Source of the DNA: Candidatus Woesearchaeota archaeon
GTDB lineage: Archaea; Nanobdellota; Nanobdellia; Woesearchaeales; UBA10216
Direction of reading: 5' to 3'
DNA: 64,000 bases
Assembly (NCBI GenBank): GCA_016192905.1
Contig: JACPTG010000004.1
Location: forward strand, 5,745 to 69,744
Shown here: in pieces, positions 1 to 58,861 of the stretch
How positions within the stretch are numbered: position 1 is the first letter of the stretch
How the letters are laid out: every line of letters begins with the position of its first letter
Translations under genes and position numbers: made by a program
Notes under the pieces: generated by a model
What the model saw: the letters and a program-made list of their open reading frames with translations, nothing else
Databases searched by the model: none
Told to the model about the DNA's origin: nothing

Positions 1-3000
1 CAGCCCTGGCCAACAGTGCAGGTCTTGAACTCCAAAGCACAGGAGCCGCCGCAGTCAACATCAGTCTCCACAAACTGGTCCTTAACCCTGTTGCTGCATG
101 AAGACTCAGCCGAACTGCACCTTCCTGAGATGCACTTGCTCCCTAAAATGCAGTCGCCATCCTCAGAACAGGTCTGCGTGTCCTGGCACTTCCTGCCCAT
201 GCGGCTGCAGGAGCCGCCGCAATCCACGTCAGACTCGCCAACATCCCTGAACCCGTTAGAGCATGAATCTGTCTGGACTGAACACCGCTTGAACAGACAG
301 TAATTGGAAATGCAGTCAGCATTCTGGACGCAGGTGGCATTAAGCCTGCAGTCAGAGCAGGAGTTTCCGCCGCAGTCAACATCAGACTCGTTGCCATTCC
401 TAACATTATCGCTGCAGCTTCCACGCTTACAGGCACCTGAGCTGCAATAATAGCCGTCCCTGCAGTCTTCATTATCAGTGCAGCCTCCCCCGCCACCGCA
501 AGACCTGCAATCCCTGCCTCCGCAGTCAACGCCTGTCTCATCCGCATCCTTCTCCCTGTTATCGCAGTGATTGGACGAGCGGCCAAGCTCAACCTCAACA
601 TTCGCAGACCTGCCCTCAGCGCTTGTGTTCCCTGCATTGTTTGTTGCCTTTGCCTTCACGTAATAAAATGAATGGTTTGCGAAGCTAAGGCCTGTAACTG
701 TCTCCTCCTCGGCAGAAGTCCGCGTCCAGTTCACAATCAAAGTGTTATTCTCGGCGTAGTAAACAGAATATTCGTAATACTGGATGCCTGACTCATTATC
801 CACCGAATGCCAGCTTGCCCTTATCCTGTTTGAGAATGTTGAAACCTCGCCGTCCCTTGAGCCGTTCACAGACGGAGCAGACGGAGGAGTGGTGTCGACA
901 GTGAAGTCAGCCCTGGTGGTGGCGGTTGAGCCTGCAGCTGAAGTGCAGGTGAACTGGAACGAATACCTGCCCTCAGCGAGGCTAATCGTGGCCTGGTGTT
1001 GCCTTCCTGCCGGGCCGAAAGATGTCTGCTGCGAAGAGTTCTGAGAGTAAACGCACGAAGCCCGCTTGCTTGTCCTCGCGCCGAAAGCAACCTGCCTTGT
1101 CGGATAATACTGCCGGTAGTCAGGCTCAACCATGAAGGGAGCGCTTGTGTTCACCAATATGCCTATCTGGACCTTAGCTGAGAGGTTCCCGACCTTATTC
1201 ATGCACTGGAAGGTATAGTTGTTAACTGAATTGTCAACGAGGTCAGTGATGTTCTGCTTCCACAACGGCTTATAGGAGGAAGACTCTGACTCGTCTGAGC
1301 CAGCAAATGGAGTCATGGCGGAATAAGCCGCGTCAAAGGACTTTGAATAGCGGCAGACCACCTGCTGATTGGAAGTGACAGTGGCAGTGGAAATAAACGG
1401 AGTCTCGACAGAGACTGTGTCATAAAGGTTCTCCGCAGCCACCTGAATCTGCGGAGCATCGCTAATGACTGAGAGGGAAAAAGTGGATGCATTATTCTTG
1501 CCGCTGCCTGTACGGCAGGCAACGTGGACAACGCCACTGCCGATACCGTTAAGGCCGGAAACAGAATGACGCAAACCAGAAGAAGACGCGGAAAGCAACT
1601 GGCTCATAAGGTCGTAGTTGCGCTGGGTAAAGTCATACCTGCACGAAGCAGCCTGCAATGTCTCCACTGCAAGCGTGTACGGAATGCCTGTAAGCGCGCC
1701 AAGGGCAGGCTCAACAAGATAAACCGGGAAGGATGTATTCGCAACAATGGTTATGTTGGACTTCAAGGACAGATTACCGACCTTATTGACGCACTGCACT
1801 GTAAAGACGTTCACTGAATTATCAGCCAGGCCAGCCACCGGCTGCTCATGTGAAGCTGCGTAAGCAGACTCCAAGTCCTCATCATAACCAGCAAACCCGG
1901 ACATCTCGGCGAATAAATCCTGATAGACCCTTGTGTACCTGCACTGGACATCCTGGTCTGACTGAACCCTGATTGAAGAAGCAAGCGGAATAGCCGAGGC
2001 ATTGTCTGCTGTTAAGGTTATTGTTGCATTGTCTTTGAGAACTGTCAGGGCAAAGTCCTCCTCCACAGGCTGGCCGCCAGGAGCCTTGCAAGCCACATAC
2101 ACGTGGCCTGCGCCCAGGGATGTGAGGGGGGTGCCGTAGCTGTTTGGACCGGTAATTGACTGGTAAGGCACCAGGCCTTGAGTCATTGAATCATAATGCG
2201 GCTGAGTAAGGCTGTACCTACATCCATCAACAGGCACTGACGTGCCCACAGCAAAAATGAAATTATTGCCAGGCGTAAAGCCGAACCTCGGCTTGAGAAG
2301 TGCAATGGTCAAGTCGCCTGAAGGCGGGGTGACGCAGGCACCGTTATTATCGCAAACCCTGCCATCGGGACAGCGATTCTCAGCACTGCAAGGCACGCAC
2401 ACACCGGCAGAAGTGCAAACCCTGCCGCCAGTGCAGGGGTTTGAAGCGCTGCACTCGGGCTCGGATGAGCACACTCCATTATTGCACGCCTGACCAGAAG
2501 CGCAGCTAGTTCCTGAGTCCCACTCAAGACACGAATCCGAGTCATAATTGCCACAAGTCCGAACTTTACCATCAGAACTGCAAGACCTGGAGCCGGAGGG
2601 AGAACAACCATCAGAGCATTCAGCCACACACTGGCCATTCTGGCAAACCTGGCCAAGAGAACAGGCAGGGGTGCACGCATTCGGGTCAATGCACTGGCCG
2701 TTAACGCAGCTCCTGCCAGCAGGACAATCTGTGAAGAGCACGCAGCCAGAAGTGCACGCTCCATTTACACAGCGCTGGGCTGCCGGGCAGTGGGTATTGT
2801 CATAACAAAGGCCTGAGCACTGGCCGTTAACACAGCGCTGGCCCTGACTGCACTGGGAACTGTCAAGGCAGCCTGCAATGCAGCCGCCTCCAACACAAAT
2901 CTTTTGAGAGGGACAGTCACTGTTAATTGTGCATGCAGAAGTGCAGGCTCCGCTTACACACCTGCCTCCCTGGCACTGTGAATCCTGAGTGCAGCCAGTG

Positions 3001-6000
3001 CCTGCCGAAACGCAAGAGCCGTCAACACACCTCTGGCCTGAGCCGCAGTGCGAATTGCTGTAGCATGCAGAGGAGCAGACTCCTGCCACGCAACGAAGCA
3101 TCGGAGACTGGCAGCCTGAATCTGAGATGCACGCCGCGGAGCATACGCCATTTATGCAATTTTGCCCTGAAGGGCACTGGTTCTGGGAAGAGCCGAGTTC
3201 GCAGCTTCTGCCCTGGCAGATTCCATTCACGCATCGCTGATTATCCGGGCAGTTTGTATCAACCAGGCATGCAGATGTGCACTCGCCGCTGACGCATCTT
3301 GTATTCGGCGGGCAGTCATTTATGGATATGCAAGCAGAGCTGCAGACGCCATTGATGCAACGCCTCTCAACTGGGCACTGCGAATTCTGGCCGCAGCCAG
3401 GCGAGGGCACGCAAACACCCTGGATGCATCTCCCATTTGAACATTGGCTGTCAGAAGCACAGGCAGGAGCTGTGCAAACGCCATTCACGCAGCGCTGACC
3501 CTGCTGCTGGCAATTTGAATCAAATATGCAACTTGAGCTGCACTGGCCATTAACGCAGCGCGGCGTGCCAGCAGGACAGTCATTATCCACCATACACCCT
3601 GAAACGCAGCCGCCATTAACGCAAGGCTTACTGTTCAGACAGGGCCTTGAGTCGCTGCACTCTGAAAGGCATGCTCCGTAATAGCACCTCTGGTTTGCTC
3701 CGCAACCTGTATCTGACGTGCATCCGGTTCCTGCAGCAATGCAGGCTCCATTCAGGCACTTCTGAATGCCAGTGCAATGGGAATCAGAATAACATGCTGA
3801 CGAACAGGAGCCGCCAATACATCTGGTCCCCTGAACTGGGCAGCCAGAGTCTGAAGCGCAAGCAGCAGTGCACTGGCCACTAATGCAGTTCTGACTGTTC
3901 TGACAGTCACTCCTGGTAGAGCAGGAGCCGCCAGAGCAGATGCCATTGGAACACTGCTGGCCTGAAGAGCAATCGGATTGTGAAGTGCAAACAGCCACGC
4001 AAGCGCCGCCGGAAGAGCACTTTGTGCGGCTAGGACACTGAGTGTCTGAATTGCAGGCAGTAGTGCATGCGTTGTTTATGCAGCGGGGAACCGATGACGG
4101 GCAGTTTTCGGCAGACAGGCAGCCAGGAGCAGGAATGCAAAGGCCTGCAATGCATCTTTTATCAGACTCGCACTGGGCATCTGAAGCACAGGCAGCCTGG
4201 CACACTCCAGCCACACACTTCTGGCCGCTGCTGCACTGCGAATTATAGACACACGCTGAACTGCAGGCTCCGTTAAGACACCGCTGGTTTGAATTGCAAG
4301 CAGTGTCAGCAAGGCACCTCTGAACGCACGCGCCATCAACACACACCTGACCCTCCTGGCACGGACTGGCCTGACTGCAGGCAGGAGGAGCCACGCACTG
4401 ACCTGAGGGGCAAGGGTTGAGAGTCCCAGACCTGCCCTCAGCACTGACCAAGCCGCCCCTATTCGTTGCGCGAACCTTGGCATAAATCAGGTGATTGTCC
4501 GAAATGATGGTAAGCATAGTGGCACTGGCCTGCGCTGTCCTTGTCCAAGCAAGCAGCTCGGAATTGTTATTCGCATAATAAACAGAATACTCATAATACT
4601 GAATCCCTGACTCAGCATCCGATGAACTCCATGTTCCCCGTATTCCAACACCGGCGCTTATTCCCTGGCCACTAACAGCCTCAATAGTGACAGTGGGCGT
4701 TGACGGAGGGGTGGTATCCACCACAAACCGCTTGGTAAGCGAAGCTGACTGGCCTGAGGACGAAGTGCAGTCAACGGTGTGAGCATAAAGGCCGTCCTGA
4801 AGCTCAAGGCTGGCTGAATGAGCCAAACCAACCTCGCCGAAAGAAACTGGCTGGCCTGAGCCGGGAGTGTAAGTGCACGACGCCTTCTTTGTTGTGCGAA
4901 CGCCGAAAGAAACTGTGCGTGTCCTATAATAATCGCTGTATGAGGAAACAATGCCAAATGGCGCCTTTGTATTCACATCAATAGACTTTGTGACTTTGTT
5001 GGAAAATGTTCCGACCTTATTCATGCACTGGAACGTGAAGCTATTTACAGCCTCATCAACAAGGTCAGTTATATCCTGCTGCCACGAAGCCTTATACGAG
5101 GAAGCGGATGACTCGTCAGAGCCTTCAAATTGAGTCATGGCAGCATAAGCCGCATCCGCCTTCTTGGAATAACGGCAGACAACCTTCTGGGTTGAAGTGA
5201 CGGTGGCAGTGGCAAGCAGGGGAACCTCAGCAGAGAACGTGTCAGTAACATCATCAGCAGCCACGCTAATGGAAGGCTCGCCGCTCACAAGCTCCAAATC
5301 AAACGTCGTAACGTTAACCTTGCCAACAGGACCAGAGCAGCCAACCCTGACATAGCCGCTGCCAATCCCCTGAACATTAGCTGCCGAATGACTCAAACCA
5401 GAGGAACCAGCAGCAAACCTATTAGCCATCCGCTCATACCTCGTCTGCAAGAAATCATACCTGCACGAAGCTGGCTGATTGGTAGTTACCCTCAGAGTAT
5501 ACGGAACGCTTGGCAAGGCGCCAAACCTCGGCTCAACCAACGCTATAGGAATCGTGCTGTTAGCCAAAATCGAAACATTAGCCTTCATTGACAAATTGCC
5601 AACCTTATTCATGCACTGAACGGTATAAACATTCACAAAGCCATCCCTAAGGTCAGTAAACGGCTCAACATTAAGAGGCAACACATGCGCTTTCTTATAA
5701 GCAGACTCCAAATCCTCATCATAACCAGCAAACCGCGACATCTGAACGAATGAGTCCTCATACCGCTTAGTAAACCTACACTGAACATCCTGATCAGACA
5801 CAACAGAAATACTTGACTCAACAGGATAACTGGAAGTATCACGGCCAGTGAGGGTGATAGTTGCATTGGTGTTAAGGATGGCAAGGCTAAACCTCTGCTC
5901 ACTCAAAGCACCATCAGCAGCCCTGCAGCCAACATACACAAAGCCCTCCCCTACGCTGTTAAGGCTTATGCCATAATAGTTAATTGTGCCAGACTGCAAG

Positions 6001-8804
6001 GTGAGGGAAGCTGTCATGTCAGCATAACGCGGCGCAGTAAAGCTGTACTTACAGTCAGCACTCCTTGAAGTCGCCACTACCAAATTATAAGGAGTTCCTG
6101 AGGTAACGCCAAGCCTTGGGCTGACCAGCGTAATTCCCAAATCACCAGGTGAAACGCAGACACCTGCGGAATTGCAAATCTTTCCTCCGGTACAGGCAGG
6201 CCGGCCCTGGCCACACTCAGGAAGGCACTCGTTGTTCTCGCATACCTTCCCTCCGGTGCATGGCTGGTCAGCATAGCATTGCACGCAATATCCACCCACG
6301 CAGAACCTCTTAACTGCGTCGTTACAAGGATTGTTGCTGTCACAAGGAACTACGCAAGAGCCGCCCCTGCACTCCTGGCCAGCAGGACAGCGATTAGCAG
6401 TGGTGTCACAGGCAACGCAAGTGCCTGAGGAACTGCAAACCTTACCTCCGGTACACGACCTGGACTGGCTGCACTCAGGCCCTGCTGAACACACGCCATT
6501 ATTGCACAACTGGTCAGAAGCGCAACTGGCTCCTGAGTCCCACTCAAGACACGAATCCGAGTCGTAATTGCCGCAAGCCTGAACCTTACCATCAGAGCAA
6601 CGCTTCACGCCTTCGCTGCACTCATTCGTGCAGGGAACAAGCCGGGTGTCGCACTTCTTCGAATCCGGATTGCAGTAACCGGAAACGCAGTCACCATCTG
6701 AGCCGCAACCAGTATCAATCGGGCAGGCAGGGCACGGGCCGCCACAATTAAGGCCAACCTCGCCAGGGTCCTTTACCTCGTTGAAGCAGCTCTGCGGAGG
6801 CATGGGAGCGCACTGGCCTGAAGGATTGCAATAGCCTGTTGTACAGTCAGAGCCCTTACCACACTTCTGTGGAGGCGGGCACCTGGCGCAGAACTGGCCG
6901 CCGCAGTCAACATCTGTCTCGCTGTTGTCCTGGCCTGAGTTGCCGCAGCGAGGGTCAACCTCAACAAAGATTTCTGCTGTCTTGATGATTTCGAGATTCT
7001 TATTCCTGTCCTGGGCATAATAGAAAAGGAAATTCCTTCCCTGCGACAGGGTTTTGGCTGTAACAGCCTCGGGGATGTTAATCAGGTAGGAAGGAAGCTC
7101 CCTTGGAGTACAGGGGGTATTTGTTGCTGAGGAGCAGAAGAAAACCTTTGCGCCTGTAACATAGCCGCCATAACTTTCTTTGGAAACCCTGTCAAACACG
7201 CTGAACTGAAGATAATTAGAACCCTGCCTGAAGCTTGTACTTGGAGGATAAAAGTCAGCCTCACACTGACCTGAAGAGCAGTCAGCAGCCTGGTCAAAGT
7301 CAGCGTCCTTCTTACAAGCATCCTGAATCCACCTGCACACGTTAAGGCCGCAGAATGAATCAGGCGGGGAAACGAGCCGGTTTGAGGAGTCCTTAGACTG
7401 GGCAGAATGGGAGCTACAGGCAGCCTGGCCTGCAAGCCTTGTGCAGTCAACAGGACAATCCGCAGCCAGCCTTGTGCAGTCAAAAAGCGGAGTTGAAAGC
7501 GCAGCCAGCTTTGTGGAAGAGGGCGCATCGAATATTGAATTATAAGCGCTTCGAACGCCCTGAGTCCCTGCGCTGTCAAGCCACTGGCAGTTGTTCTTAG
7601 AACTGTCAATGCAGACTCCAGCCCCAATTTCATCATAAGTGGGCTTCCACTGGCAGTTTCCTGCCCTGCAATTGTTGGCTGTACAGGCGTCCCCTGACTT
7701 GTAGTCATAGCAGCTCATCTGGGGGGAACAGTCGTAGCAGGCATTGGCAGTGCTTTTTGACTTATCATAAAAGCAGTAATTTCCAGCAGCTTCGCAAGAG
7801 GAGCGGGTGGCAAATAGGCCGAAGGGCCTGCCAACAAGGCTGCAGGTTGAAGCCCGCACGCAGGAATAGCCCTCCCTTATTGATGAGTCAGGAGCGCACT
7901 GGGTGCCGGCAGCGCACTGTGTAGTTGTAAGCCTGTTCTGGAAGTCGCAGCTTCCCGCAGAATTGAACAAAGAGCGGAAGCTTGCAGAAACATACTCATC
8001 AAAAGACTGGGCGCCTCTTACCTCATCAATGTAAGGCTTGAATGGCGCCTGAGAGTAAAGCTGAGCGGAAATGCAGAATTTCCTGCCTGCAGCCCTGCCC
8101 CAGCAGGTCAAGTCGCCAGTATTGATGGACTTAACTGCGGGAAAGGACTGGCCTCCCTTGGAAGCAGTAACCCTGTAATTGTACACCTGCCCCCACCTCA
8201 GGCCCTGGTCCCTGTCAGAATAGCTGGTCCCCCTGGCAGTTGCGAGCTGCGCGAAATCAGTGCAGGAAACACCAGTGCAACGCTCAATATTAAAGCTGTC
8301 AGCAGCGCAGTCATCACTCCAAAGCAGCCTTACAAAGCGCTGCCCCTGGACATTCAAAAGCACAAGATTGGGGGTGCAGGAAACACCCTCAGGAGGCGTA
8401 ACCTCTCCACACAACACGCTGCAGGTCTTCCCAGCCACAGGCTCAACAGCAGCCTGGCCAGGCCTCTCGCAAAGCGCCTTCACAACCTTAGTACCCTCAG
8501 GGCAGCAGCAGACAACAGCACACTTCTGCTCAGCAGCGCAGGAAGACTCCTTGAAAAAGGCGCTGCGGCAAGCAGCCGGGGACTGCACCCGGTCAGAATA
8601 GAAGCGGGGGTATTCCTCAGGAGGAGAAGGGCAGCATTCTGAAGGCGAAACCTCAGTACTGGCACAAACCCTCTCAATGGCGTTGGGATTCAGGCAGCAT
8701 GCCTCTGCGCCATCAGCTGAATAAGCAGCCACCGCCAGAAAGGCCAGAGAAGCCAGTAACAAGTACAAAAATGCACCTTTTTTTGCTGCTCCAATACTTA
8801 ACAT
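1..8804 (-). CDS. Giant secreted Cys-rich surface protein (giant 1). Start codon is in the window and the 3' end runs off the left edge (2,934 codons visible)
   Basis: ATG at 8804 (atg tta agt att gga gca gca aaa aaa ggt...). Hand translation gives MLSIGAAKKGAFLYLLLASLAFLAVAAYSADGAEACCLNPNAIERVCASTEVSPSECCPSPPEEYPRFY... The minus frame with end mod 3 = 2 has no entry at all in the ORF track over 8.8 kb; every listed minus ORF here is in one of the other two frames (end mod 3 = 0 or 1). That fits one open frame with no stop inside the window. Spot translations at 6639-6659 (KKCDTRL) and 3-59 (VDCGGSCALEFKTCTVGQG) stay in frame. The N-terminus is paralogous to the heads of 10203..15041 and 15949..20634. 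Confidence 0.85.
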   Translation of the reverse strand, partial: MLSIGAAKKGAFLYLLLASLAFLAVAAYSADGAEACCLNPNAIERVCASTEVSPSECCPSPPEEYPRFYSDRVQSPAACRSAFFKESSCAAEQKCAVVCCCPEGTKVVKALCERPGQAAVEPVAGKTCSVLCGEVTPPEGVSCTPNLVLLNVQGQRFVRLLWSDDCAADSFNIERCTGVSCTDFAQLATARGTSYSDRDQGLRWGQVYNYRVTASKGGQSFPAVKSINTGDLTCWGRAAGRKFCISAQLYSQAPFKPYIDEVRGAQSFDEYVSASFRSLFNSAGSCDFQNRLTTTQCAAGTQCAPDSSIREGYSCVRASTCSLVGRPFGLFATRSSCEAAGNYCFYDKSKSTANACYDCSPQMSCYDYKSGDACTANNCRAGNCQWKPTYDEIGAGVCIDSSKNNCQWLDSAGTQGVRSAYNSIFDAPSSTKLAALSTPLFDCTRLAADCPVDCTRLAGQAACSSHSAQSKDSSNRLVSPPDSFCGLNVCRWIQDACKKDADFDQAADCSSGQCEADFYPPSTSFRQGSNYLQFSVFDRVSKESYGGYVTGAKVFFCSSATNTPCTPRELPSYLINIPEAVTAKTLSQGRNFLFYYAQDRNKNLEIIKTAEIFVEVDPRCGNSGQDNSETDVDCGGQFCARCPPPQKCGKGSDCTTGYCNPSGQCAPMPPQSCFNEVKDPGEVGLNCGGPCPACPIDTGCGSDGDCVSGYCNPDSKKCDTRLVPCTNECSEGVKRCSDGKVQACGNYDSDSCLEWDSGASCASDQLCNNGVCSAGPECSQSRSCTGGKVCSSSGTCVACDTTANRCPAGQECRGGSCVVPCDSNNPCNDAVKRFCVGGYCVQCYADQPCTGGKVCENNECLPECGQGRPACTGGKICNSAGVCVSPGDLGITLVSPRLGVTSGTPYNLVVATSRSADCKYSFTAPRYADMTASLTLQSGTINYYGISLNSVGEGFVYVGCRAADGALSEQRFSLAILNTNATITLTGRDTSSYPVESSISVVSDQDVQCRFTKRYEDSFVQMSRFAGYDEDLESAYKKAHVLPLNVEPFTDLRDGFVNVYTVQCMNKVGNLSMKANVSILANSTIPIALVEPRFGALPSVPYTLRVTTNQPASCRYDFLQTRYERMANRFAAGSSGLSHSAANVQGIGSGYVRVGCSGPVGKVNVTTFDLELVSGEPSISVAADDVTDTFSAEVPLLATATVTSTQKVVCRYSKKADAAYAAMTQFEGSDESSASSYKASWQQDITDLVDEAVNSFTFQCMNKVGTFSNKVTKSIDVNTKAPFGIVSSYSDYYRTRTVSFGVRTTKKASCTYTPGSGQPVSFGEVGLAHSASLELQDGLYAHTVDCTSSSGQSASLTKRFVVDTTPPSTPTVTIEAVSGQGISAGVGIRGTWSSSDAESGIQYYEYSVYYANNNSELLAWTRTAQASATMLTIISDNHLIYAKVRATNRGGLVSAEGRSGTLNPCPSGQCVAPPACSQASPCQEGQVCVDGACVQRCLADTACNSNQRCLNGACSSACVYNSQCSSGQKCVAGVCQAACASDAQCESDKRCIAGLCIPAPGCLSAENCPSSVPRCINNACTTACNSDTQCPSRTKCSSGGACVAVCTSQSDCSSGQQCSNGICSGGSCSTRSDCQNSQNCISGQCTAACASDSGCPVQGTRCIGGSCSSACYSDSHCTGIQKCLNGACIAAGTGCTSDTGCGANQRCYYGACLSECSDSRPCLNSKPCVNGGCVSGCMVDNDCPAGTPRCVNGQCSSSCIFDSNCQQQGQRCVNGVCTAPACASDSQCSNGRCIQGVCVPSPGCGQNSQCPVERRCINGVCSSACISINDCPPNTRCVSGECTSACLVDTNCPDNQRCVNGICQGRSCELGSSQNQCPSGQNCINGVCSAACISDSGCQSPMLRCVAGVCSSACYSNSHCGSGQRCVDGSCVSAGTGCTQDSQCQGGRCVSGACTSACTINSDCPSQKICVGGGCIAGCLDSSQCSQGQRCVNGQCSGLCYDNTHCPAAQRCVNGACTSGCVLFTDCPAGRSCVNGQCIDPNACTPACSLGQVCQNGQCVAECSDGCSPSGSRSCSSDGKVRTCGNYDSDSCLEWDSGTSCASGQACNNGVCSSEPECSASNPCTGGRVCTSAGVCVPCSAENRCPDGRVCDNNGACVTPPSGDLTIALLKPRFGFTPGNNFIFAVGTSVPVDGCRYSLTQPHYDSMTQGLVPYQSITGPNSYGTPLTSLGAGHVYVACKAPGGQPVEEDFALTVLKDNATITLTADNASAIPLASSIRVQSDQDVQCRYTRVYQDLFAEMSGFAGYDEDLESAYAASHEQPVAGLADNSVNVFTVQCVNKVGNLSLKSNITIVANTSFPVYLVEPALGALTGIPYTLAVETLQAASCRYDFTQRNYDLMSQLLSASSSGLRHSVSGLNGIGSGVVHVACRTGSGKNNASTFSLSVISDAPQIQVAAENLYDTVSVETPFISTATVTSNQQVVCRYSKSFDAAYSAMTPFAGSDESESSSYKPLWKQNITDLVDNSVNNYTFQCMNKVGNLSAKVQIGILVNTSAPFMVEPDYRQYYPTRQVAFGARTSKRASCVYSQNSSQQTSFGPAGRQHQATISLAEGRYSFQFTCTSAAGSTATTRADFTVDTTPPSAPSVNGSRDGEVSTFSNRIRASWHSVDNESGIQYYEYSVYYAENNTLIVNWTRTSAEEETVTGLSFANHSFYYVKAKATNNAGNTSAEGRSANVEVELGRSSNHCDNREKDADETGVDCGGRDCRSCGGGGGCTDNEDCRDGYYCSSGACKRGSCSDNVRNGNESDVDCGGNSCSDCRLNATCVQNADCISNYCLFKRCSVQTDSCSNGFRDVGESDVDCGGSCSRMGRKCQDTQTCSEDGDCILGSKCISGRCSSAESSCSNRVKDQFVETDVDCGGSCALEFKTCTVGQG

Positions 8805-8946
8805 CCCTTAAACAGCCTTTTAAAATTCACCCTTTATTATATTTTGCCTTATTCAAAGACTTAGGTGTAAATTTAACCGCCATTAAGTGGCTTATAAAAC
8901 TGTTAAACTAACCTTAATTTGTTCACTGCCTTTATTGGGTTGAACC

Positions 8947-9435
8947 CTACTCTGTCTTGCCGAACTCCTGGAGAATCTTGCGCTGCTCAGAATGCTTCTC
9001 CTTCAGCCGCTTCTCATAAATGTCGCGCTCATACCTGCTCATCACCATGTAAAGAGGGCTCTTCTGGGCCTCGGCATGGAGCTGCGCGGCCGCTGACAGG
9101 GGAACTGCCTTGGGCTGAGCCTTACCAGGCTTTGATTTCCTTAGAAGCATGAAAGCGGCGAAGCCAAGGCCAAGCACGCCGACTCCGATAAGAACAGGCA
9201 CGAGAAGGCCACCCAAAGGACTGCCAGCCTCCTCGGCCTCAGAAGAGGAACCTGAAGATGAAGAGGAGCCTGAAGATGGGGTACTGCCTGAGCCTGCTGC
9301 GGGTTGCTGGATGCTCCGGTCAGGCGGCGGCGGAGGCAGCGGAGGGCCATCATCTGCATCATGATAATTGGCAGCGGCAAATGAAGCCGACAAAACAGCC
9401 AGCGACGCTATCAGCACAATCAAAAAAGGCCTCAT
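8947..9435 (-). CDS. Small single-pass membrane protein (signal peptide, Pro/Ser-rich stalk, TM helix, charged tail)
   Basis: The track ORF 8947..9444 starts at GTG. The first ATG at 9435 gives MRPFLIVLIASLAVLSASFAAA. A PPPPPPD and SSGSSSSSGSSS low-complexity stretch is followed by a hydrophobic LLVPVLIGVGVLGLGFAAFMLL segment. No family recognised. Confidence 0.55.
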   Translation of the reverse strand: MRPFLIVLIASLAVLSASFAAANYHDADDGPPLPPPPPDRSIQQPAAGSGSTPSSGSSSSSGSSSEAEEAGSPLGGLLVPVLIGVGVLGLGFAAFMLLRKSKPGKAQPKAVPLSAAAQLHAEAQKSPLYMVMSRYERDIYEKRLKEKHSEQRKILQEFGKTE

Positions 9436-9502
9436 GATGGACACCTTTGCAAGGCATCAACAATCCTCATATATGAAGTTTGCGGTTGCGTTTTGGAAAG
9501 AC

Positions 9503-10147: not shown

Positions 10148-10202
10148 TTTATCCCCCCCAAGCTCCATCTCCGCAGAATACATCCATTCATGATTGGCAG
10201 GA

Positions 10203-13200
10203 TTAATGGCATTTCTTATCTGCTCCGCAAAGACCGCTAATGCAGTCGTTATTTTCACTGCATGACTTACCATTGGAGCATTTCAGGCAGTTACCACCAC
10301 AATCGACATCTGATTCAAAACCATCAAAAGCTCCATTTGTACACACAGTTGCGCATTTATTTGGAGTAGTATATGGGTTGCAGTAGCCTGTGGCGCAGTC
10401 TGTTGAAAACCTGCACAGCTTACCTTGCGCGCATGACACGCACGGACCGCCACAATCAGTATCTGTCTCATCACCATTCTTAATACCGTCGTTGCAGGGA
10501 TTAACAGAACATTTACCAGCGCTCCCGCAGTTACCAGATTCGCAATCAGTTGCAGTCCTGCAGGCCTTATTAAGCCCACACTTCACAGAACAAGAACCAC
10601 CACAGTCAGTGTCGCTTTCGCCGCCATTCTTAATGCCATCAGAACATGACGCGCCACTGAACTTATTCAGCTTATCCGTCAAAAGCTTCTTGTTCCACAG
10701 GCCAAAATCGTAAGTCCCGCACTCCAGGCAACTCATAATAGAAGTGTAAACAGAGCGAAACGCGCCAATTTCTTTCAACCCGCAGCCCTCATGACAATCG
10801 ACCTCAAGGCTGTAAAGCGGAGTACCTTTTTCGCAGTCCACAGTCCCTTCCTCACCGCAGCCATATCCAATAAGACCGTTCCAGGGAGCCTTTTCCCGAC
10901 ATTCCACTTTGGCCCCGCCTACATAGCAGTTGGGGATTGAATACTGAATTGAAGCGCCCTTTATCGCATACTCATCAGCAAGACGCCCAAAGCTGTGACC
11001 TATCTCGTGCACAACAACTTTGTTATCAGATGCGGCGGGAATGCAAGTTATTCCTCTATCGCACTGGAACGTACGGTGACAGGCTTTGAAAATTTCAAGA
11101 TCCACCTGATCTAATATTCCATCATCATTATAATCGTCCAACCCTCGGTCATAATACGCCCTACGATTCTCCTCACAGTCATTCTTTATGGGCACATTCT
11201 TGCAATAAGGCCTATATTTCCCATCGGCCATGCAGTAATCATAAATCCGTATGTAAGCTTGGTCCCCGATTGCAAACCCGGGATAAATGTTTCCATTTAC
11301 CAGTACGACCATCAGCTTGTTTGAGTAAGGGCACAGACCAAATAATCTAAATGCGTCCACCGTAAACAATTTTTCATCGAAGTGGTTACCGCCATAAACC
11401 GCATAGAAATTCATCTTATTCCTGTTGGACGTAAACGGCTCAACTGAGAGGAGGCCATAGTTGCTTCCTGAAGGATCAACAGCCATCTGTGCATATTTCA
11501 GAAACGATTCCTTTGATTCATAGCCTATGCCAACAAAAACGAAATTCACTCTGTCCGCAGACGCGTCATTGCCAGGTATCAGGTCCTCACATACTCCGGA
11601 AGATACAATTCTGAACGTCCTGATGTAGGTTTTTAATATTTTGGAACCGGCTAAATTTCCGGATAGAGTTGCCCTGATATAATATGATTCGGGAGGTGTT
11701 TTTGCGGAATTCCAGACTCCGCCATGGATATTATCCTGAGGGCTAAAATCGCCATGCTTGCCATCATTAAACATCTTAACATTTGCTATAACTTTTGATC
11801 TGCTGTCGAGAATATCCAGTCCAATTTCAGCATCGACAATCCTTGGATCAGTAGTAACTAAAATTGCGAATAATGTGCCTTCAATTATTTCTTGCGGTGC
11901 ATCAAGATACGCATATACTGACTTAGGCAGAATCTTGACTTTTCCCTTGTATACCTCCTTATTTCCTGGCGTGCATTTCACTCCACCCACACCAACGGGG
12001 CAATTCCAGCCTTCTACAGCTAATGTGTAGTCTCCAGGAGAAAATTTTTGAAGCGCATTGTCTAAAACGACCAATGATTCACCTTCTACTGATTCATAAC
12101 CCCATTTAAGTGTACTCCAGAGTTCCTCATCGTTTAAATAAGGGCTTATAACATTTGCGTAAGCATTCCTTTTAACCAGCACCTGAATGGATTCATCCTC
12201 CTCAATAATATCAGGAAAAACGTTGAGAAGTTCTACCTTCGGGCTTTCAATTTTTACACACTTTTTTGAAATGCAGTCCAAGCCAGCCCCACAGTCTGTG
12301 ATGCTGTCGCAATTCTTGCCCGTATAGCACTTAATGCAACTGCCCCCACAATCCACGTCAGACTCTGTACCGTCCTTGACACCATTGCTACAATGTTCAA
12401 CGGTGCAGATATTGCTGCCGCTACAATACTTGGTGCGGCAATCGCTGTATGAATTACATTTTTGGCCAAGTACGCACTTAACGCAAGAGCCTCCGCAGTC
12501 AACATCAGACTCAGAACCATCCTTTTGATTGTTATTGCAATGTCTTACGCACCTTGAATTATCACATATCTTGCCAGAAGGGCAAGGATTGGCGGCAGAG
12601 CACTCCGGCCTTTCACATTTCAGCAAGCTTGGATTGCAGTAGTTGCTCTGGCAGTCCGCTGATACCCTACATTCGTCATCATTTGCACAGCCATTGGGGC
12701 AAGAGCCCCCGCAGTCAATACCAGTCTCATCAGCGTTCTTTTCTCCATCATAACAAGAAGCTGCACAGACCAAGTTTGCACACATGCCCCTGCGGCAATC
12801 TAAGGGCGACCCGCACCTCTGATTATATTTGCAACCACCGCAGGTTCCGCCGCAATCGATGTCAGACTCTCGGCCATTTATAACGCCGTCCGTACAGGAA
12901 GGAATTGAACAAACCCCTGAAGATGATCCTGAAGAAACGCTACAATATCCAGTGCTGCAGTCGCGATACTCCTTACATGGAGACCCTGTCTCGCACGGAG
13001 GGCATGGACCTCCGCAGTTCAACCCTGTTTCCCCGCTATCCTGCACGTTGTTAAGGCAGCTGCTAAAAACAGCGCATTTTCCCTGATTACAGAAATTGCT
13101 CTGGCAGTCAGCCTTAGAAAGGCAAGCCTTATTAATAGGGCACTTGCCGCAGCGAAGGCCGCAATCAGTATCAGTCTCCATGTTGTAATCGAACTTCCCA

Positions 13201-15029
13201 TTGCTGCATGCGAAATCCTGCACAAAAATCCTCAGGGCTCCACTCCAAGGCATTATACCCTGCAACTCCGAATGCTCTGCAGAGGAAACAATATCCCTCC
13301 CGTCCATCGCATCTGAATTTTTGCCCTTATCATAAATCACGTTAGGAGGAAGATTATCCAAAGACATGCCAGCTGGAGGGGCAATGTAAACATTGCTCAC
13401 CTGCAAAACCCTTTTTTTACCAGTATTGTAATCAAAGACAAAGCTGTCAAAGCCCTGGAAGGCGCGGCTTGCTGACTGCAAAGGATTACCGCTGCCATCA
13501 CGCATATCATATTTATCCAGCTCATAAAGATACCACCTTGAGCAGCCATCAGGCTTATGGCTGAAGCCGTGAGCATCCTCAGGGTCAACATCGCAGATTC
13601 TCCTCCATGAACGCTTCCCGTCCTTATGCACGAAAGTCTGGACCAGATGCTTCTTTCCGTCATTGCCGTCAAAAGAATAAACATCAAAACCTGCGAAGCG
13701 ATGGTCCTCCCTGGGAATAACACTCCCATCAGCATAAGTCATCTCCTCCATGCTCAAGTCAACAAAGCGCCACACCTGCTCGCATGAGGCCTGGTTATAA
13801 GCATGAAAGCTCCCATCAAGAGTACAAACCCTATTCCACGCACGCCAGCCATCATGGTGGACAAAGGACTGCACAATCTTCTTGGTGCCATCTGACGAGT
13901 CAAAGATGTAGTCATCAAAGCCATAAAATGTTTTTTCAGAGTCTGCCAGCTTTCCTCCCAAAGAATCAGAAAAATCCTCATCCTTCAAATTCACAAAATT
14001 CCAGGCAGTGCAGCCATCAGGCTTATGGCTAAAGCCATGGTCATCATTCTCATCATAATTACATACCCGGTTCCAGGCACGCCAGCCATCCTTATGGACA
14101 AAACTCTGCAAAATTTTCTTAGTGCCATCGCTGCTGTCAAAAATGAATGTATCAAACCCTGAGAAAGTCTTATCATAAGAAGCAAGGTCAGCACCCCTAG
14201 AATTCTTAAACTCCTCAGCAGCCAAATCAACCCTCCTCCAGGGAGACTCACAGGAAGACTCATCATAACCCCAGTCAAGAAATCCCTTTATTTTGCAAAC
14301 CCGGTTCCAGGCGACATTGCCCTCCTTATTTACAAAAGACTGGACTACCAGCTTGTCAAAAACAGGCTCATCCCCGTTAGGAAAAACAACATCAACCTCC
14401 TGGCCAAGAGAGTAATCTGCCTGGGCGGTGTAAGTAAACCAGCCATCACCAACAGACCATTTTTGCACCTGCCGGCCATCAAGCCACAACTGCATCTCAG
14501 GCGAATTCTCGCCCTTGGCAGAAATCCTGAAACCAGTGCTCCCAACCTTGCCTGAACGGGTTGGAATAGTACCAGAGATAGGCGGAGTGCCTGCACCAGG
14601 AGGAGTTACAGTGCCTGATGGAGCAGCCTTCTCCCTGCAGAGCTGGTCGCACTTCTTCCCAGCCTCGGTCGGGTAATAGACGCTGCTGCCGCTGCACGCA
14701 GACTTCACCCTAACCGTGCCATCAGGACAGCAGCAGCCGACCACGCACTCATCAACCCCGCTGCAGCCTTGGCCCTGCCTGAAGTATAGATTGCTGCATG
14801 TCTGCTGGCTTTTTTCAATCCCTGTGTAAAACCTTGGATAATCCGACGGAGGGGAAGGACAGCATTCTGAAAGAGAAACATCAGTAGAGGCGCAAACCCT
14901 TTCAATCGCATTGGGATTCAGGCAGCAAGAGGCGGCGGAAACAGAACTTGCGCCAAGGGCAAGAAGCGCCAGAACAGCCAGTAATAAGTAAACAAGGACA
15001 CCCTTTTTTACAAATCCGGCACCAAACAT
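10203..15029 (-). CDS. Giant secreted mosaic protein (giant 2) with an M64-like HExxH metalloprotease domain
   Basis: The listed start at 15041 is TTG. The first ATG at 15029 gives MFGAGFVKKGVLVYLLLAVLALLALGASSVSAASCC. Domains seen: the Cys-rich head CCLNPNAIERVC...CCPSPPSDYPRFY...CCCPDGTVRVKSAC, a CBM-like module split by VQSFVHKDGWRAWNRVC repeats, about nine E(S/T)DxDCGGxC modules, and DRVNFVFVGIGY plus VVVHEIGHSFGRLADEY (HEIGH at 10995..11009). Confidence 0.9.
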   Translation of the reverse strand: MFGAGFVKKGVLVYLLLAVLALLALGASSVSAASCCLNPNAIERVCASTDVSLSECCPSPPSDYPRFYTGIEKSQQTCSNLYFRQGQGCSGVDECVVGCCCPDGTVRVKSACSGSSVYYPTEAGKKCDQLCREKAAPSGTVTPPGAGTPPISGTIPTRSGKVGSTGFRISAKGENSPEMQLWLDGRQVQKWSVGDGWFTYTAQADYSLGQEVDVVFPNGDEPVFDKLVVQSFVNKEGNVAWNRVCKIKGFLDWGYDESSCESPWRRVDLAAEEFKNSRGADLASYDKTFSGFDTFIFDSSDGTKKILQSFVHKDGWRAWNRVCNYDENDDHGFSHKPDGCTAWNFVNLKDEDFSDSLGGKLADSEKTFYGFDDYIFDSSDGTKKIVQSFVHHDGWRAWNRVCTLDGSFHAYNQASCEQVWRFVDLSMEEMTYADGSVIPREDHRFAGFDVYSFDGNDGKKHLVQTFVHKDGKRSWRRICDVDPEDAHGFSHKPDGCSRWYLYELDKYDMRDGSGNPLQSASRAFQGFDSFVFDYNTGKKRVLQVSNVYIAPPAGMSLDNLPPNVIYDKGKNSDAMDGRDIVSSAEHSELQGIMPWSGALRIFVQDFACSNGKFDYNMETDTDCGLRCGKCPINKACLSKADCQSNFCNQGKCAVFSSCLNNVQDSGETGLNCGGPCPPCETGSPCKEYRDCSTGYCSVSSGSSSGVCSIPSCTDGVINGRESDIDCGGTCGGCKYNQRCGSPLDCRRGMCANLVCAASCYDGEKNADETGIDCGGSCPNGCANDDECRVSADCQSNYCNPSLLKCERPECSAANPCPSGKICDNSRCVRHCNNNQKDGSESDVDCGGSCVKCVLGQKCNSYSDCRTKYCSGSNICTVEHCSNGVKDGTESDVDCGGSCIKCYTGKNCDSITDCGAGLDCISKKCVKIESPKVELLNVFPDIIEEDESIQVLVKRNAYANVISPYLNDEELWSTLKWGYESVEGESLVVLDNALQKFSPGDYTLAVEGWNCPVGVGGVKCTPGNKEVYKGKVKILPKSVYAYLDAPQEIIEGTLFAILVTTDPRIVDAEIGLDILDSRSKVIANVKMFNDGKHGDFSPQDNIHGGVWNSAKTPPESYYIRATLSGNLAGSKILKTYIRTFRIVSSGVCEDLIPGNDASADRVNFVFVGIGYESKESFLKYAQMAVDPSGSNYGLLSVEPFTSNRNKMNFYAVYGGNHFDEKLFTVDAFRLFGLCPYSNKLMVVLVNGNIYPGFAIGDQAYIRIYDYCMADGKYRPYCKNVPIKNDCEENRRAYYDRGLDDYNDDGILDQVDLEIFKACHRTFQCDRGITCIPAASDNKVVVHEIGHSFGRLADEYAIKGASIQYSIPNCYVGGAKVECREKAPWNGLIGYGCGEEGTVDCEKGTPLYSLEVDCHEGCGLKEIGAFRSVYTSIMSCLECGTYDFGLWNKKLLTDKLNKFSGASCSDGIKNGGESDTDCGGSCSVKCGLNKACRTATDCESGNCGSAGKCSVNPCNDGIKNGDETDTDCGGPCVSCAQGKLCRFSTDCATGYCNPYTTPNKCATVCTNGAFDGFESDVDCGGNCLKCSNGKSCSENNDCISGLCGADKKCH

Positions 15030-15057
15030 GTGTCTAAGCAACTAAATTTTAACCACC

Positions 15058-15106: not shown

Positions 15107-15952
15107 CTACTTCCTGTTATACCCATACTTCTGCTGAAGCTGCTGAAGGGCATAATACTCCTTCAGCTCCTCAGGGGACATCTGCCGCTTAATTGGCTGC
15201 TGCTGGGCGGATGGCTGACTTGGCTTTAGCTGCTGCGGCTGGGACTTGGCTGCGGCAGGAGCAGATGCCTGAGCCTGCTGCTGCCTGGCCGGAGCAGGGG
15301 CTTTGACGGCAGCCTTCTGAGGCCTGCGGCGGATGAAGATGAAGACGGCAGCGAGAGAGACAACAGCCACGGCAACAACCACAGGCAGGACAGGGAACGA
15401 TGACTGCTTTACCGCAAGTGGAATGAGCTTCGGCGATTCCTTCGGGCAGTCAACATCGCACTGCTCGCCTGGAGCGCAGACTGAGTCGCCGCAGAAACTG
15501 GTCAGATGAGATAATGGAATTTTAAGCAGCCTGATTCCGCCGGGCGAATAAACCTCAACTGAACCTGCTTCCTCAGAATATGGAAATAATACATCCTTAC
15601 TGGACTTTTGCAGTGTGACTGATGTTCCATTTGGAATCACCACCTGCCTGCCGGACTCATCAAACCATGATGGGTCGGCCAACCCCGCCAGGACAAGCGG
15701 AAAGTTGAACCGGACCTCCAAAAGAGGATCTGAATTTTTGTCAAGCAGCCTGGCAAGATAGCCGTCTGAAGGCTGATCCCGCTCAGGGTAATAAATGCCT
15801 TCCGCAACATAGGCGCCGCCGTCTGATATTGCGCCATTATCATAAAGCATTGTAACCACGAAAACCCTTCCTGAAGAGGGCGCTTCCAAAGCAACAGCAG
15901 CTACTGCCAGAAGCAGAATGGCCACTGATGCAAACAGGCAGATTCTTCTCAT
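15107..15952 (-). CDS. Secreted membrane-anchored small protein with Gln-rich tail, paralog of 9503..10147
   Basis: Signal peptide MRRICLFASVAILLLAVAAVALEA. The protein contains ...SFCGDSVCAPGEQCDVDCPK...SSFPVLPVVVAVAVVSLAAVFIFIRRRPQ followed by a Q/A/P-rich tail. Its ATG overlaps the giant 3 stop codon (ATGA at 15949-15952). Confidence 0.85.
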   Translation of the reverse strand: MRRICLFASVAILLLAVAAVALEAPSSGRVFVVTMLYDNGAISDGGAYVAEGIYYPERDQPSDGYLARLLDKNSDPLLEVRFNFPLVLAGLADPSWFDESGRQVVIPNGTSVTLQKSSKDVLFPYSEEAGSVEVYSPGGIRLLKIPLSHLTSFCGDSVCAPGEQCDVDCPKESPKLIPLAVKQSSFPVLPVVVAVAVVSLAAVFIFIRRRPQKAAVKAPAPARQQQAQASAPAAAKSQPQQLKPSQPSAQQQPIKRQMSPEELKEYYALQQLQQKYGYNRK

Positions 15953-48629: not shown

Positions 48630-48670
48630 ACCGGGCTGGCCTTGTGAATGGTGTTTTATAAATCTTTCTT

Positions 48671-49588: not shown

Positions 49589-49618
49589 TCCTGCGATTCC
49601 CCAACTTTCGTATATAAA

Positions 49619-52212: not shown

Positions 52213-52281
52213 CTATCCCTGAGCCTCTTTGTTTAAAGGAACTTAATCGCCCAGGCGCATTTAAATCTTTCTAGAAGCAAT

Positions 52282-58642: not shown

Positions 58643-58722
58643 TAGCAGGCTGTGGCTACCTTGGATTTAACAGCCCCTTTCGGGAGACTCGTGGCGTGTA
58701 CGGCCAGGCTTCGTGAACCGCC
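58643..58722 (+). repeat. MITE-like intergenic repeat, copy F (L-arm type)
   Basis: Sequence is tagcaggctgtggctaccttggatttaacagcccctttcgggagactcgtggcgtgtacggccaggcttcgtgaaccgcc. It aligns with copy A and with the reverse complement of copy E. Confidence 0.8.
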
Positions 58723-58861
58723 CCCTGTTTACTTCCTCTTGCTTGATGAACTCTTTCAATTGTACAGCTTACATTGTACCGTACACCAAAAAAAGGGCCT
58801 TTCAATAACTCGCATCCGCATCGGGATAAATTTTTATAGCTCAAATTTCAGAATTTGCCGC

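Follow-up and report, generated by a model that had tools for sequence, protein, structure and literature searches.

In bacteria, the fimU-pilVWXY1E cluster places one large nonpilin protein with a Sec signal among genes for minor pilins, and a role in adhesion has been proposed for it. PilY1 combines von Willebrand factor A (vWA)-like and beta-propeller domains and has no membrane anchor. Among the archaea, a computational study by Makarova, Koonin, and Albers (2016; PMC4858521) described type IV pilus loci in Thermoproteales whose products include a large "S-layer-like" protein that contains Cys and is anchored at its C-terminus. Here, we examine a gene for a giant Cys-rich protein (below, the giant) that starts at position 8804 on the minus strand of a 64,000-nucleotide (nt) stretch of Candidatus Woesearchaeota DNA (contig JACPTG010000004.1; this whole stretch is referred to as the window) and runs off the low-numbered edge. 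That the corresponding open reading frame (ORF) was missing from the program-made ORF list used in the first-pass annotation adds no new biology by itself; what is new is the operon context, found in dozens of genomes of Woesearchaeota and Nanoarchaeota, along with three candidate domain families outside Pfam, namely, a head of ~600 amino acids (aa), a DxDCGG module, and a short cytoplasmic tail motif. For the question of how DPANN archaea hold on to partner cells, the operon gives a testable list of candidate envelope or attachment parts. A search of the literature turned up no description of the giant's family or of its operon.

By analogy, the giant may be a large surface protein akin to those encoded in archaeal type IV-pilus-like loci. 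What the Thermoproteales loci (PMC4858521) have in common with the locus studied here is a large Cys-bearing protein with a single transmembrane (TM) segment, a second signal-peptide protein ("adhesin or minor pilin"), and small pilin-like proteins, all of them predicted; the minor pilins of that description are small, contain Cys, and occur several per locus. The two differ in lineage (DPANN/Woesearchaeota versus Thermoproteales), and the comparison is one of descriptions only. Moreover, the Thermoproteales loci were defined around a secretion ATPase and TadC, neither of which was seen in the flanks mapped here, and the head, the DxDCGG modules, and the Cys array of the giant are without counterpart in that description. 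Unlike PilY1, the giant is anchored by a TM helix with a cytoplasmic tail behind it, and it shows no PilY1 domain (homology was tested via Pfam only).

With Drosophila Dumpy and similar eukaryotic matrix proteins composed of Cys-hairpin/EGF-type arrays, the giant shares its size, its membrane anchorage, and long arrays of ~21- to 24-aa disulfide hairpins. It differs from Dumpy in its archaeal host and in an array without epidermal growth factor (EGF) modules, and the likeness extends no further than the Cys spacing of a single type of repeat; convergent or very distant small-disulfide folds are the probable source of the resemblance to Dumpy and to Pfam family DUF7107. The SPEARE proteins of Nanohaloarchaeota reportedly carry protease, adhesion, and restriction-endonuclease-type domains. 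They resemble the giant as giant, surface-exposed DPANN proteins with a proposed role in host contact (Hamm et al., 2019; PMC6642349), but the giant has none of those domains, and no SPEARE protein was found among its homolog matches. Finally, Johnson et al. (2024; PMC11420986) imaged the attachment organelle of Nanobdellota archaeon YN1, an apparatus embedded in the envelope with a filament that touches the host, and state that its proteins are unknown. The phylum name of that organism (Nanoarchaeota/Nanobdellota) recurs in the genome titles of several loci related to ours; the organelle is known from imaging of thermophilic Nanobdellales only, whereas the operon described here is known from genes only.

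The giant frame is an intact gene

The first-pass annotation had described a minus-strand frame that starts with the ATG at 8804 and stays open as far as the window edge. Translation of window positions 3 to 8804 bears this out: the frame holds 2,934 codons from that ATG to the edge and not one stop, and within the same stretch, stops number 62 and 227 in the two other minus frames and 93 to 119 in the plus frames. Its absence from the ORF list proved to be a listing artifact, frames that run off an end being omitted by the ORF tool. The ORFs that were listed had been taken for shadows, and those of at least 150 aa (143 to 637, 2309 to 2764, and 7082 to 7708) do overlap the giant and share one other minus frame, a placement derived by arithmetic on their coordinates.

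The true 3' end, which the annotation had left to be sought in neighboring sequence, was reached via the downstream neighbor (P0151, [quoted passage not shown]). This route led to a Logan contig (L081; run SRR12113429) that matches window positions 1 to 2540 at 2540 of 2540 bases and carries a further 592 bases of the gene, ending in a stop codon. From the ATG, the full gene therefore measures 9,396 nt, i.e., 3,131 aa plus the stop. A public gene call (P0001, on a 283,780-bp contig) gives 3,119 aa and starts at the TTG of codon 13. The gene is thus already present in public data as a hypothetical protein, with the family, the head, the DxDCGG modules, and the operon essentially unannotated.

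An in-frame TAA two codons 5' of position 8804 leaves the ATG there as the earliest start that the frame allows. We prefer it over the TTG because it supplies a basic n-region (..AAKKGA..) for the signal peptide, because the same start is found in the ortholog of the GTDB representative genome (L001), and because the ~55 nt preceding it are conserved. In the comparison of the two intergenic regions, only these last ~55 nt before the ATG, which include the element AAAATATAATAAA, were conserved; the remainder had diverged and contains an indel of ~150 nt (an insertion in L001:9614-9905). Within the conserved part, 26 to 51 nt upstream of the ATG, lies the AT-rich element TGAATAAGGCAAAATATAATAAAGGG (8830..8855, minus strand; TATA-like core at 8833 to 8845), a putative archaeal promoter of the giant gene. 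Farther upstream in L001, a transposase-like ORF, recognized from its translation alone, occupies L001:7805-8827 (minus strand), two genes upstream of the giant with the small-protein gene s165 (see below) in between.

The L001 ortholog (L001:9905-19483) is 3,192 aa long and 91% identical to the giant; it contains a 65-aa Cys-hairpin insertion at aa 776. When the two genes were compared in 20 blocks of ~150 codons, the ratio of nonsynonymous to synonymous substitution rates (dN/dS) ranged from 0.0 to 0.47 in 19 blocks; the remaining block had a ratio of 1.16 on almost no substitutions, which leaves that ratio without weight. Divergence is mosaic: aa 602 to 1054 and aa 2105 to 2554 are 80 to 90% identical with dS values of 0.25 to 0.8, and the rest is 93 to 100% identical with dS values of 0.01 to 0.2. 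In window coordinates, the divergent stretches lie at 903 to 2318 and 5600 to 7000. Because dS climbs along with dN (0.25 to 0.8), positive selection behind the variable segments was ruled out, and the pattern suggests recombination, either among strains or from one to the other of the two internal copies described below.

A highly repetitive, low-complexity protein taken from a metagenome assembly might be suspected of being no gene at all (an ORF open by chance, a pseudogene in decay, or a chimera of repeats produced by the assembly), a possibility to which we give next to no credence. The probability of meeting no stop in 2,934 codons, computed from base composition, is ~1e-53; 19 of the 20 blocks show purifying selection relative to an independent assembly; the Logan contig comes from another read set and is identical over 2,540 nt, with the same stop codon; and the architecture is common to homologs from end to end. 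In addition, Tandem Repeats Finder detected no DNA-level tandem repeats, which argues against such a chimera and rules out recent repeat expansion or repeat misassembly. The giant frame is an intact, real gene of a Woesearchaeota (DPANN) archaeon.

The giant is encoded in a conserved operon of prepilin-like genes

To map the surroundings of the gene, the ORFs of 80 related loci were clustered into families, the giant being F1. A fixed same-strand order was found, F3-F0-giant-F5-F2-F4-F6, often continued by F8 and then by F15 or F24. F3 proteins are Cys rich, secreted, and 600 to 1,300 aa long; the others are smaller (F0, ~430 aa; F5, ~180; F2, ~350; F4, ~170; F6, ~170; F8, ~110). Out of 80 loci, 72 carry F0 (which is located directly upstream of the giant), 56 carry F2, 51 F3, 47 F4, 42 F5, and 40 F6, and the gene of the giant's own family is mostly present once per locus (72 of 80). 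In L081, F5, F2, F4, and F6 follow the giant's stop codon directly, which places the giant at the operon position typical of its family; that stop overlaps the F5 start, and the F2/F4 and F4/F6 pairs overlap as well.

Archaeal type IV prepilins begin with a basic leader and then a hydrophobic stretch (class III signals). Members of F0, F5, F2, F4, F6, and F8 have N-termini of this kind, in which a basic leader ending in [KR][GAS]Q precedes 20 to 25 hydrophobic residues; the pattern was counted in 70 of 74 F0 proteins, 41 of 42 F5, 54 of 56 F2, and every member of F4 (47/47), F6 (40/40), and F8 (35/35). The window itself holds the upstream part of the operon. A 306-aa F0 member (20622..21542, minus strand; N-terminus MRAQVSVFIIIGVLLMVSAGIVFWV, type-IV-prepilin-like) has BLAST homologs in 48 of the 80 loci. 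Immediately upstream of it lies the gene for G4 (21539..25900, minus strand), a secreted, Cys-rich protein of 1,453 aa whose C-terminal ~270 aa constitute the F3 domain; the C-terminal 274 aa have matches in 35 loci, and in the maps of related loci F3 occupies a fixed position, likewise upstream of F0. In the window lineage, five genes are inserted between F0 and the giant, encoding two further giants (G2 and G3), two small membrane-protein paralogs, and s165.

Judged by gene order and predicted N-termini, the giant is part of an operon of pilus-subunit-like genes that is conserved across many genomes. We consider it probable, with some reserve, that this intact type I membrane protein is a stalk-like surface adhesin or envelope protein working with a type-IV-filament system. 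A layout with several minor-pilin-like genes also resembles the bacterial fimU-pilVWXY1E arrangement, and the giant might accordingly be pictured as a PilY1-like filament adhesin, released or carried by the minor pilin-like proteins, with its Cys-pair-rich N-terminal region (the CC head) docking on a pilin complex and with G2 and G3 using the same dock. A docking function is suggested by the occurrence of the CC head in otherwise different proteins (three in the window and also in L001), two of which are anchorless. We nevertheless hold such a role to be improbable: a filament-borne adhesin would need neither a C-terminal TM helix of its own nor a conserved tail motif, the Pfam scans of the giant revealed no vWA, beta-propeller, or DUF2341 domain, and the co-encoded, anchorless F3 is the better candidate for a tip adhesin.

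Architecture of the giant

All the elements that the first-pass annotation had listed were recovered, and in the order given there, from signal peptide to C-terminal DxDCGG modules; the sole qualification concerns the fold of the Ig-like units (see below). An additional fibronectin type III (Fn3) domain, absent from that list, lies between the CC head and the Cys-rich globular region, and the C-terminal membrane anchor, like the family and the operon, was beyond what that annotation could see. With two hydrophobic segments only (aa 9 to 31 and about aa 2962 to 2995), the giant is predicted to be a Sec-exported protein of type I topology whose ectodomain is very large, rich in Cys, and in part glycosylatable. 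Of its 268 Cys residues (8.6%), none lies beyond the TM helix. Its 25 N-x-S/T sequons all lie outside the head and the Cys arrays, being limited to the Ig-like/Fn3 blocks and the C-terminal DxDCGG region; 17 of them fall within the second Ig-like and Fn3 block (aa 2179 to 2745), versus 7.6 expected (P < 0.002).

The signal peptide (aa 1 to 29, MLSIGAAKKGAFLYLLLASLAFLAVAAYSA followed by DG; 8718..8804, on the minus strand, as are all of the coordinates given in this section) coincides largely with the hydrophobic segment at aa 9 to 31, and the same N-terminus is found in L001. N-termini of homologs are Sec-like and end in ..VNA before Q and ..VSA before E, and a Sec-type cleavage before DG (AYSA-DG) is likely in the giant. 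A class III signal was also considered for its N-terminus (..KKGAFLYLLL..) and rejected, as homologs carry ordinary Sec signals; read from the sequences, a small-x-small site precedes the first Cys, and the giant does not qualify as a type IV pilin.

Next comes the CC head (aa 30 to 139, CCLNPNA..C..ECCPSPP..CCCP..; 8388..8717), which could be aligned with the heads of the family and is conserved in it. It is shared with the two neighboring giants, at 50% identity to the N-terminus of the 1,612-aa neighbor and 42% to that of the 1,561-aa neighbor, and matched no Pfam family. The N-terminal Fn3 domain (aa 140 to 229; 8118..8387) was recognized from an AlphaFold model of the head (me6fad8b7b07a, 593 aa; predicted local distance difference test score [pLDDT] of 75.6 overall and of about 85 to 91 over this domain), for which Foldseek returned Fn3 structures such as Tencon (3tes_A; probability, 1.0; TM-score, 0.72).

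The Cys-rich globular region (aa 230 to 517, CYDCSPQMSCYDYKS..NNC..GNCQW.. and KDADFD..DC..CEADFYPP; 7254..8117) is defined by columns of Cys, Tyr, Trp, and Asp that are invariant across 14 homologs, with about 25 invariant Cys among them. No match to it was found in Pfam, NCBIfam, or the PDB, and the 50 Foldseek matches listed for the head model, all of them Fn3 or beta-sandwich structures, include no analog. At aa ~405 to 430 (window 7500 to 7650), the giant lacks two Cys residues that are nearly universal in the family (NNCxWC changed to NNCQWL and FDxC to FDAP), in a stretch that is ~97% identical in the L001 ortholog; it looks as if both partners of one disulfide had been lost together. 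The N-terminal module closes with a beta-sandwich (aa 518 to 615; 6960..7253), modeled as beta structure throughout (strands at residues 493 to 585 of the model), which contains a conserved ..YYS.D..KNLE..K motif.

Two DxDCGG modules, placed by motif position, follow the head (aa 616 to 720; 6645..6959), and four more stand at the C-terminal end (aa 2743 to 2952; 3..578), the fourth being cut by the window edge at aa 2934 and completed from P0001 and L081. Alignment of 15 module triples gave a consensus with eight Cys: C-x-[ND]-x3-[DN]-x2-E-[TS]-D-x-D-C-G-G-x-C-x2-C-x5-C-x3-D-C-x-S-G-x-C-x4-C. An AlphaFold model of C-terminal modules 2 to 4 reached a pLDDT of 87.4. Neither DxDCGG segment had a Pfam match at E ≤ 5, and neither a PDB profile search nor Foldseek on the model identified a significant relative. 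The C-terminal half of the module resembles knottin (inhibitor cystine knot) or colipase/Dickkopf-type hairpins locally, in matches of 20 to 30 residues to EETI-II, atracotoxin, and Dkk4, with root mean square deviations of 0.4 to 1.2 and weak scores (E ≥ 1.3; probability, ≤0.6). A likeness of the acidic first half to the Ca-binding loop of disintegrin/ADAM proteins, suggested by a similar motif (CxNGxxDxGExDxDCGG versus CGNGxxExGEECDCG), was dropped: Pfam and the PDB offered no support, and the sole ADAM match in Foldseek had an E value of 8.8.

The middle of the protein is, as had been noted at the outset, built from two copies of one block; these are 48% identical over 716 aa. The first copy is preceded by Cys-hairpin repeats A (aa 721 to 886; 6147..6644), which match DUF7107 weakly and are 61% identical to repeats B. 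Block A then contains five immunoglobulin (Ig)-like units of ~80 to 105 aa (aa 887 to 1360; 4725..6146), as delimited by an alignment of all ten units of the protein, and ends in Fn3 domain A (aa 1361 to 1461, VVDTTPPSTP...ESGIQYYEYSVYYA...; 4422..4724). The second copy opens with Cys-hairpin repeats B (aa 2061 to 2162; 2319..2624; aa 2059 to 2160 are 61% identical to aa 725 to 820) and continues with the five Ig-like units of block B (aa 2163 to 2634; 903..2318) and Fn3 domain B (aa 2635 to 2742; 579..902; Pfam fn3 E value of 0.0039 at aa 2658 to 2729). Block B is rich in sequons and is the part that varies most between strains (80 to 84% identity to the L001 ortholog, versus 97 to 99% elsewhere).

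The Fn3 assignment was confirmed: a profile of the domain (A3, which includes both A and B) matched titin (E = 1.1e-16) and contactin-1 (E = 2.6e-6) among PDB sequences, and Pfam fn3 matches 5 of 12 family members, the giant alone scoring 17.8 bits, below the cutoff of 25. As to the units described as Ig-like, the C[RK]Y repeats were found as claimed, each unit having two invariant Cys (C[RK]Y ... hxhxC), but the Ig fold itself was not established: a single unit came to 26.6 bits against Big_13 (cutoff, 27), other units gave weak matches to assorted beta-sandwich families, and a profile of all ten had no match among PDB sequences. We retain the label because of the unit length, the two-Cys pattern, and the fact that the weak matches are all to beta-sandwich families; an Ig-like fold of the ten units is accordingly a presumption.

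Between the two copies lies the long Cys array (aa 1462 to 2060; 2625..4421), consisting of ~28 four-Cys units that are each ~21 aa long (C-x5-C-x5-C-x4-C-x3; 113 Cys in total, at a strict x3-x5-x5-x4 spacing). When 290 aa of the array alone were searched, DUF7107 (PF23416) matched at 59.2 bits in 6 stretches (cutoff, 24.6), compared with 20.2 bits on the whole protein. Weaker matches were to Dickkopf_N (26 bits), to a DPY module (E = 2.6e-4), and to a 24-aa Dumpy peptide (PDB 1oig; E = 0.099). The C-terminal part of the giant lies beyond the window (aa 2953 to 3131) and comprises, on the basis of P0001 and hydropathy, a Pro-rich linker, a TM helix (about aa 2966 to 2993), and a Lys-rich, basic cytoplasmic tail of 138 aa.

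In summary of the database searches, Pfam scans of the whole giant and of ten segments returned only DUF7107, weak Big_13 and fn3 matches, and Dickkopf_N/WAP noise; NCBIfam returned nothing, and a PDB sequence search with the giant returned only the 24-aa Dumpy peptide (E = 0.099). These results bear on the idea that the giant is a secreted enzyme or a toxin-delivery protein, either polymorphic-toxin-like or cell-wall degrading. Its neighbors G2 and G3 do carry HExxH/M64-like regions, and giant proteins of other ultrasmall or predatory microbes are linked to cell-wall degradation in the title of a bioRxiv preprint (10.1101/2023.11.21.568195). In the giant, no catalytic or toxin domain was found in Pfam, NCBIfam, or PDB searches, the invariant head residues are mainly Cys, aromatic residues, Gly, and Asp, and the C-terminus is a membrane anchor and not a toxin module, all of which makes this idea very improbable.

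A protein family with a constant head and base and a variable middle

The giant has 29 homologs, the best of which are from Candidatus Woesearchaeota and are annotated as hypothetical, "PEGA domain-containing," or "thrombospondin type 3 repeat-containing" proteins. Its ~600-aa head could be aligned end to end with those of 13 homologs (alignment A1) at 22 to 43% identity, with 39 invariant columns, and includes the Cys framework of the family (CYDYKS..C and C.KDAD..DC..CE.D.FPP). The A1 profile matches the giant in one stretch spanning positions 3 to 628 (595 bits). A search of 1.84 billion representatives with this profile yielded 564 proteins at E ≤ 1e-30, some of them multi-Fn3 proteins that match the profile in its Fn3 part alone; among the best 150, most match the whole head in one stretch. 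Among GTDB species genomes, 92 carry the head module, and almost all of these are Woesearchaeota or Nanoarchaeota. The large family that this module defines has almost no Pfam coverage.

Family members range from about 1,550 to >4,000 aa (median, ~1,700) and differ in their middles, which contain PEGA repeats, Ig-like units, or Cys arrays. A typical member of ~1,700 aa has a head, several beta-sandwiches, three two-Cys units, an Fn3 domain, three DxDCGG modules, thrombospondin type 3 (TSP3) repeats, a TM helix, and a tail. The membrane-proximal base of the giant, with its four DxDCGG modules followed by one TM helix and the basic tail, conforms to the family pattern of three or more such modules, and the same layout is seen in the homologs P0002 to P0028. 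TSP3 repeats of the bacterial, Ca-binding type are common, though not universal, in the family: TSP3_bac matches P0003 to P0007 at 30 to 47 bits, and the motif is absent from the giant (P0001). On these comparisons, the head and the membrane-proximal base are constant across the family and the middle varies. The giant is an enlarged member that lacks TSP3 and has gained two DxDCGG modules, the Cys array, and the duplicated block.

According to the main rival explanation, the giant is an S-layer or outer canopy protein whose heads form a lattice on stalks that are mere spacers, with no specific adhesion and with the pilin-like genes belonging to a separate system. The C-terminal TM anchor, the large, glycosylatable, beta-rich ectodomain, the presence of the gene mostly once per locus (72/80), and a head as highly conserved as expected of a lattice former would all suit such a protein. 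Analogous proteins in archaeal pilus loci have been named "S-layer-like" (PMC4858521), and S-layer genes are reported to be among the most highly expressed Woesearchaeotal genes (PMC11606122), an observation that is not tied to the giant's family. Nevertheless, no similarity to a known S-layer family was detected in Pfam, NCBIfam, or PDB sequences, lengths from about 1,550 to >4,000 aa would give close relatives layers of very different heights, and the overlapping stop and start codons and a downstream gene order kept in 40 to 56 of 80 genomes indicate a functional link to the pilin-like genes. We rate an S-layer role as unlikely, while regarding it as the rival to be taken most seriously.

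The taxonomic placement of the window agrees with that of the family. Translations reveal archaeal housekeeping genes, including those for tRNA-splicing endonuclease, RNase Z, Hjc, RFC, FEN1, and PAN, and the best named matches of the RFC small subunit are in Candidatus Woesearchaeota (65 to 77% identity). Many of the loci L008 to L078 carry the title "uncultured Methanosarcinales archaeon" (all from one third-party series), and a single locus here and there is labeled Binatia, Saccharibacteria, or Aenigmatarchaeota. Since the Methanosarcinales titles conflict with the Woesearchaeota placement of the window RFC, we do not take them at face value; with gene content of the Woesearchaeota type, the odd titles look like labeling or binning errors.

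A cytoplasmic motif shared with a small membrane protein

Cytoplasmic tails of the family contain a motif, [KR]..(L/I/M)F..F(G/E), exemplified by KEREKLFEAFGKE. It occurs in 22 of 57 tails, compared with 2.0 expected from shuffles (maximum, 7 in 300), the tails being mutually related and the counts thus not independent. In 18 of the 22 motif-bearing tails, it is found 43 to 62 aa after the TM helix. The giant has the variant QRKDLMRQFEV (aa ~3040 to 3055, beyond the window), and other carriers are among loci L004 to L078. A matching motif, QRKILQEFG, is contained in QRKILQEFGKTE, with which the cytoplasmic tail of s165 ends. This protein of 165 aa, a small type I membrane protein with two hydrophobic segments, is encoded just upstream of the giant (8947..9444, minus strand) and was found in the window lineage and L001 only. 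The correspondence would be explained by a conserved cytoplasmic partner shared by the giant and s165.

Proposed role at the cell surface

If the giant is indeed a stalk-like protein associated with a filament system, its Sec signal would export it, a single C-terminal helix would anchor it, and the basic tail of 138 aa would remain inside, with ~2,900 residues outside. We picture the ectodomain as a long, disulfide-stapled stalk of extended shape that holds the head far from the membrane. From the membrane outward, the stalk would consist of four DxDCGG modules, an Fn3 domain and five Ig-like units, the 28-unit Cys array, the second Ig-like/Fn3 block, and two DxDCGG modules; its tip would be the ~600-aa head, made up of the CC head, the N-terminal Fn3 domain, the Cys-rich globular domain, and the beta-sandwich. 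Beside a type-IV-filament-like structure formed by the operon partners, the giant could serve as an adhesin or spacer that holds the cell to a surface or to a partner cell. The tail motif might link it to a cytoplasmic partner, to which the tail would report or by which it would be held, and the anchorless F3 may be a filament-associated adhesin. The disulfides, the extended shape, adhesion, cooperation with a filament, and the role of the tail are all readings of sequence features.

Several observations weigh against this proposal. First, the head is the most conserved part of the protein (97 to 98% identity to the ortholog and 22 to 43% across the family), and such conservation fits a structural or self-binding role better than the recognition of varied hosts. 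Second, Pfam, Foldseek, and PDB searches revealed no recognizable binding or catalytic fold in the globular head, the Ig-like fold of the ten stalk units is presumptive, and extracellular disulfides are assumed here for what is likely an anaerobe. Third, no Pfam pilin or class III signal model, nor any other Pfam family, matches the operon partners, and no assembly ATPase, TadC-like platform, or prepilin peptidase was seen adjoining the cluster in the 80 loci or in the window; the mapped flanks of the cluster hold housekeeping genes (RNase P p30, MCM, TBP, and PheRS) along with many ORFs to which no identity could be assigned. Finally, the giant's family is known from genes alone.

A more far-reaching version, which we offer as a speculation and consider doubtful, is that the cluster F3-F0-giant-F5-F2-F4-F6-F8 encodes a cell-contact apparatus of Woesearchaeales, and possibly of Nanobdellota, composed of a type-IV-filament-like fiber of pilin-like proteins outside all Pfam families and a disulfide-stapled, anchored stalk. 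The head would then engage either a partner or the fiber, the [KR]..LF..F motif would couple contact outside the cell to an intracellular partner, and in the window lineage the CC head would also recruit the secreted, M64-like proteases G2 and G3 to the same place.

Neighboring giants and small membrane proteins

The two giants encoded between F0 and the giant gene are secreted paralogs without a membrane anchor. G2 (1,612 aa; 10203..15041, minus strand) combines a CC head, repeat modules, DxDCGG, and an HExxH/M64-like region, and G3 (1,561 aa; 15949..20634, minus strand) has a CC head, DxDCGG, and an HExxH/M64-like region as well; in both, the HExxH motif is accompanied by weak Peptidase_M64 matches (26 to 30 bits). 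Only L001 and L002 yielded relatives of the repeat and protease regions of G2 and G3, which together look like a lineage-specific insertion into the operon. Each of these CC-head protease giants is followed by a small type I membrane protein, one of 256 aa (9503 to 10273, minus strand) and one of 281 aa (15107 to 15952, minus strand), and the two are paralogs with 46% identity.

G2, G3, and G4 each contain 4 to 8 copies of a ~65-aa repeat (with a consensus like ..VQSFVHKDGWRAWNRVC..) that had no match in Pfam. In G4, this repeat adjoins a match to CBM60, which was scored at 53 bits.

Other features of the window

Outside the operon, a second cluster of envelope genes is located at 47688 to 53445 on the minus strand. 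It encodes three paralogs of ~310 aa with lipobox-like N-termini (..LAGC), a membrane protein of 552 aa, and a protein of 387 aa with a prepilin-like N-terminus (KKGQ plus a hydrophobic stretch); none of the proteins of this cluster matched a Pfam family. On the plus strand, an ATPase-like ORF of 925 aa (58652 to 61429) contains an intein inserted within its P-loop (GSGK/C...HN/S), which is matched by Intein_splicing (91 bits) and includes a LAGLIDADG homing endonuclease (LAGLIDADG_3, 76 bits).

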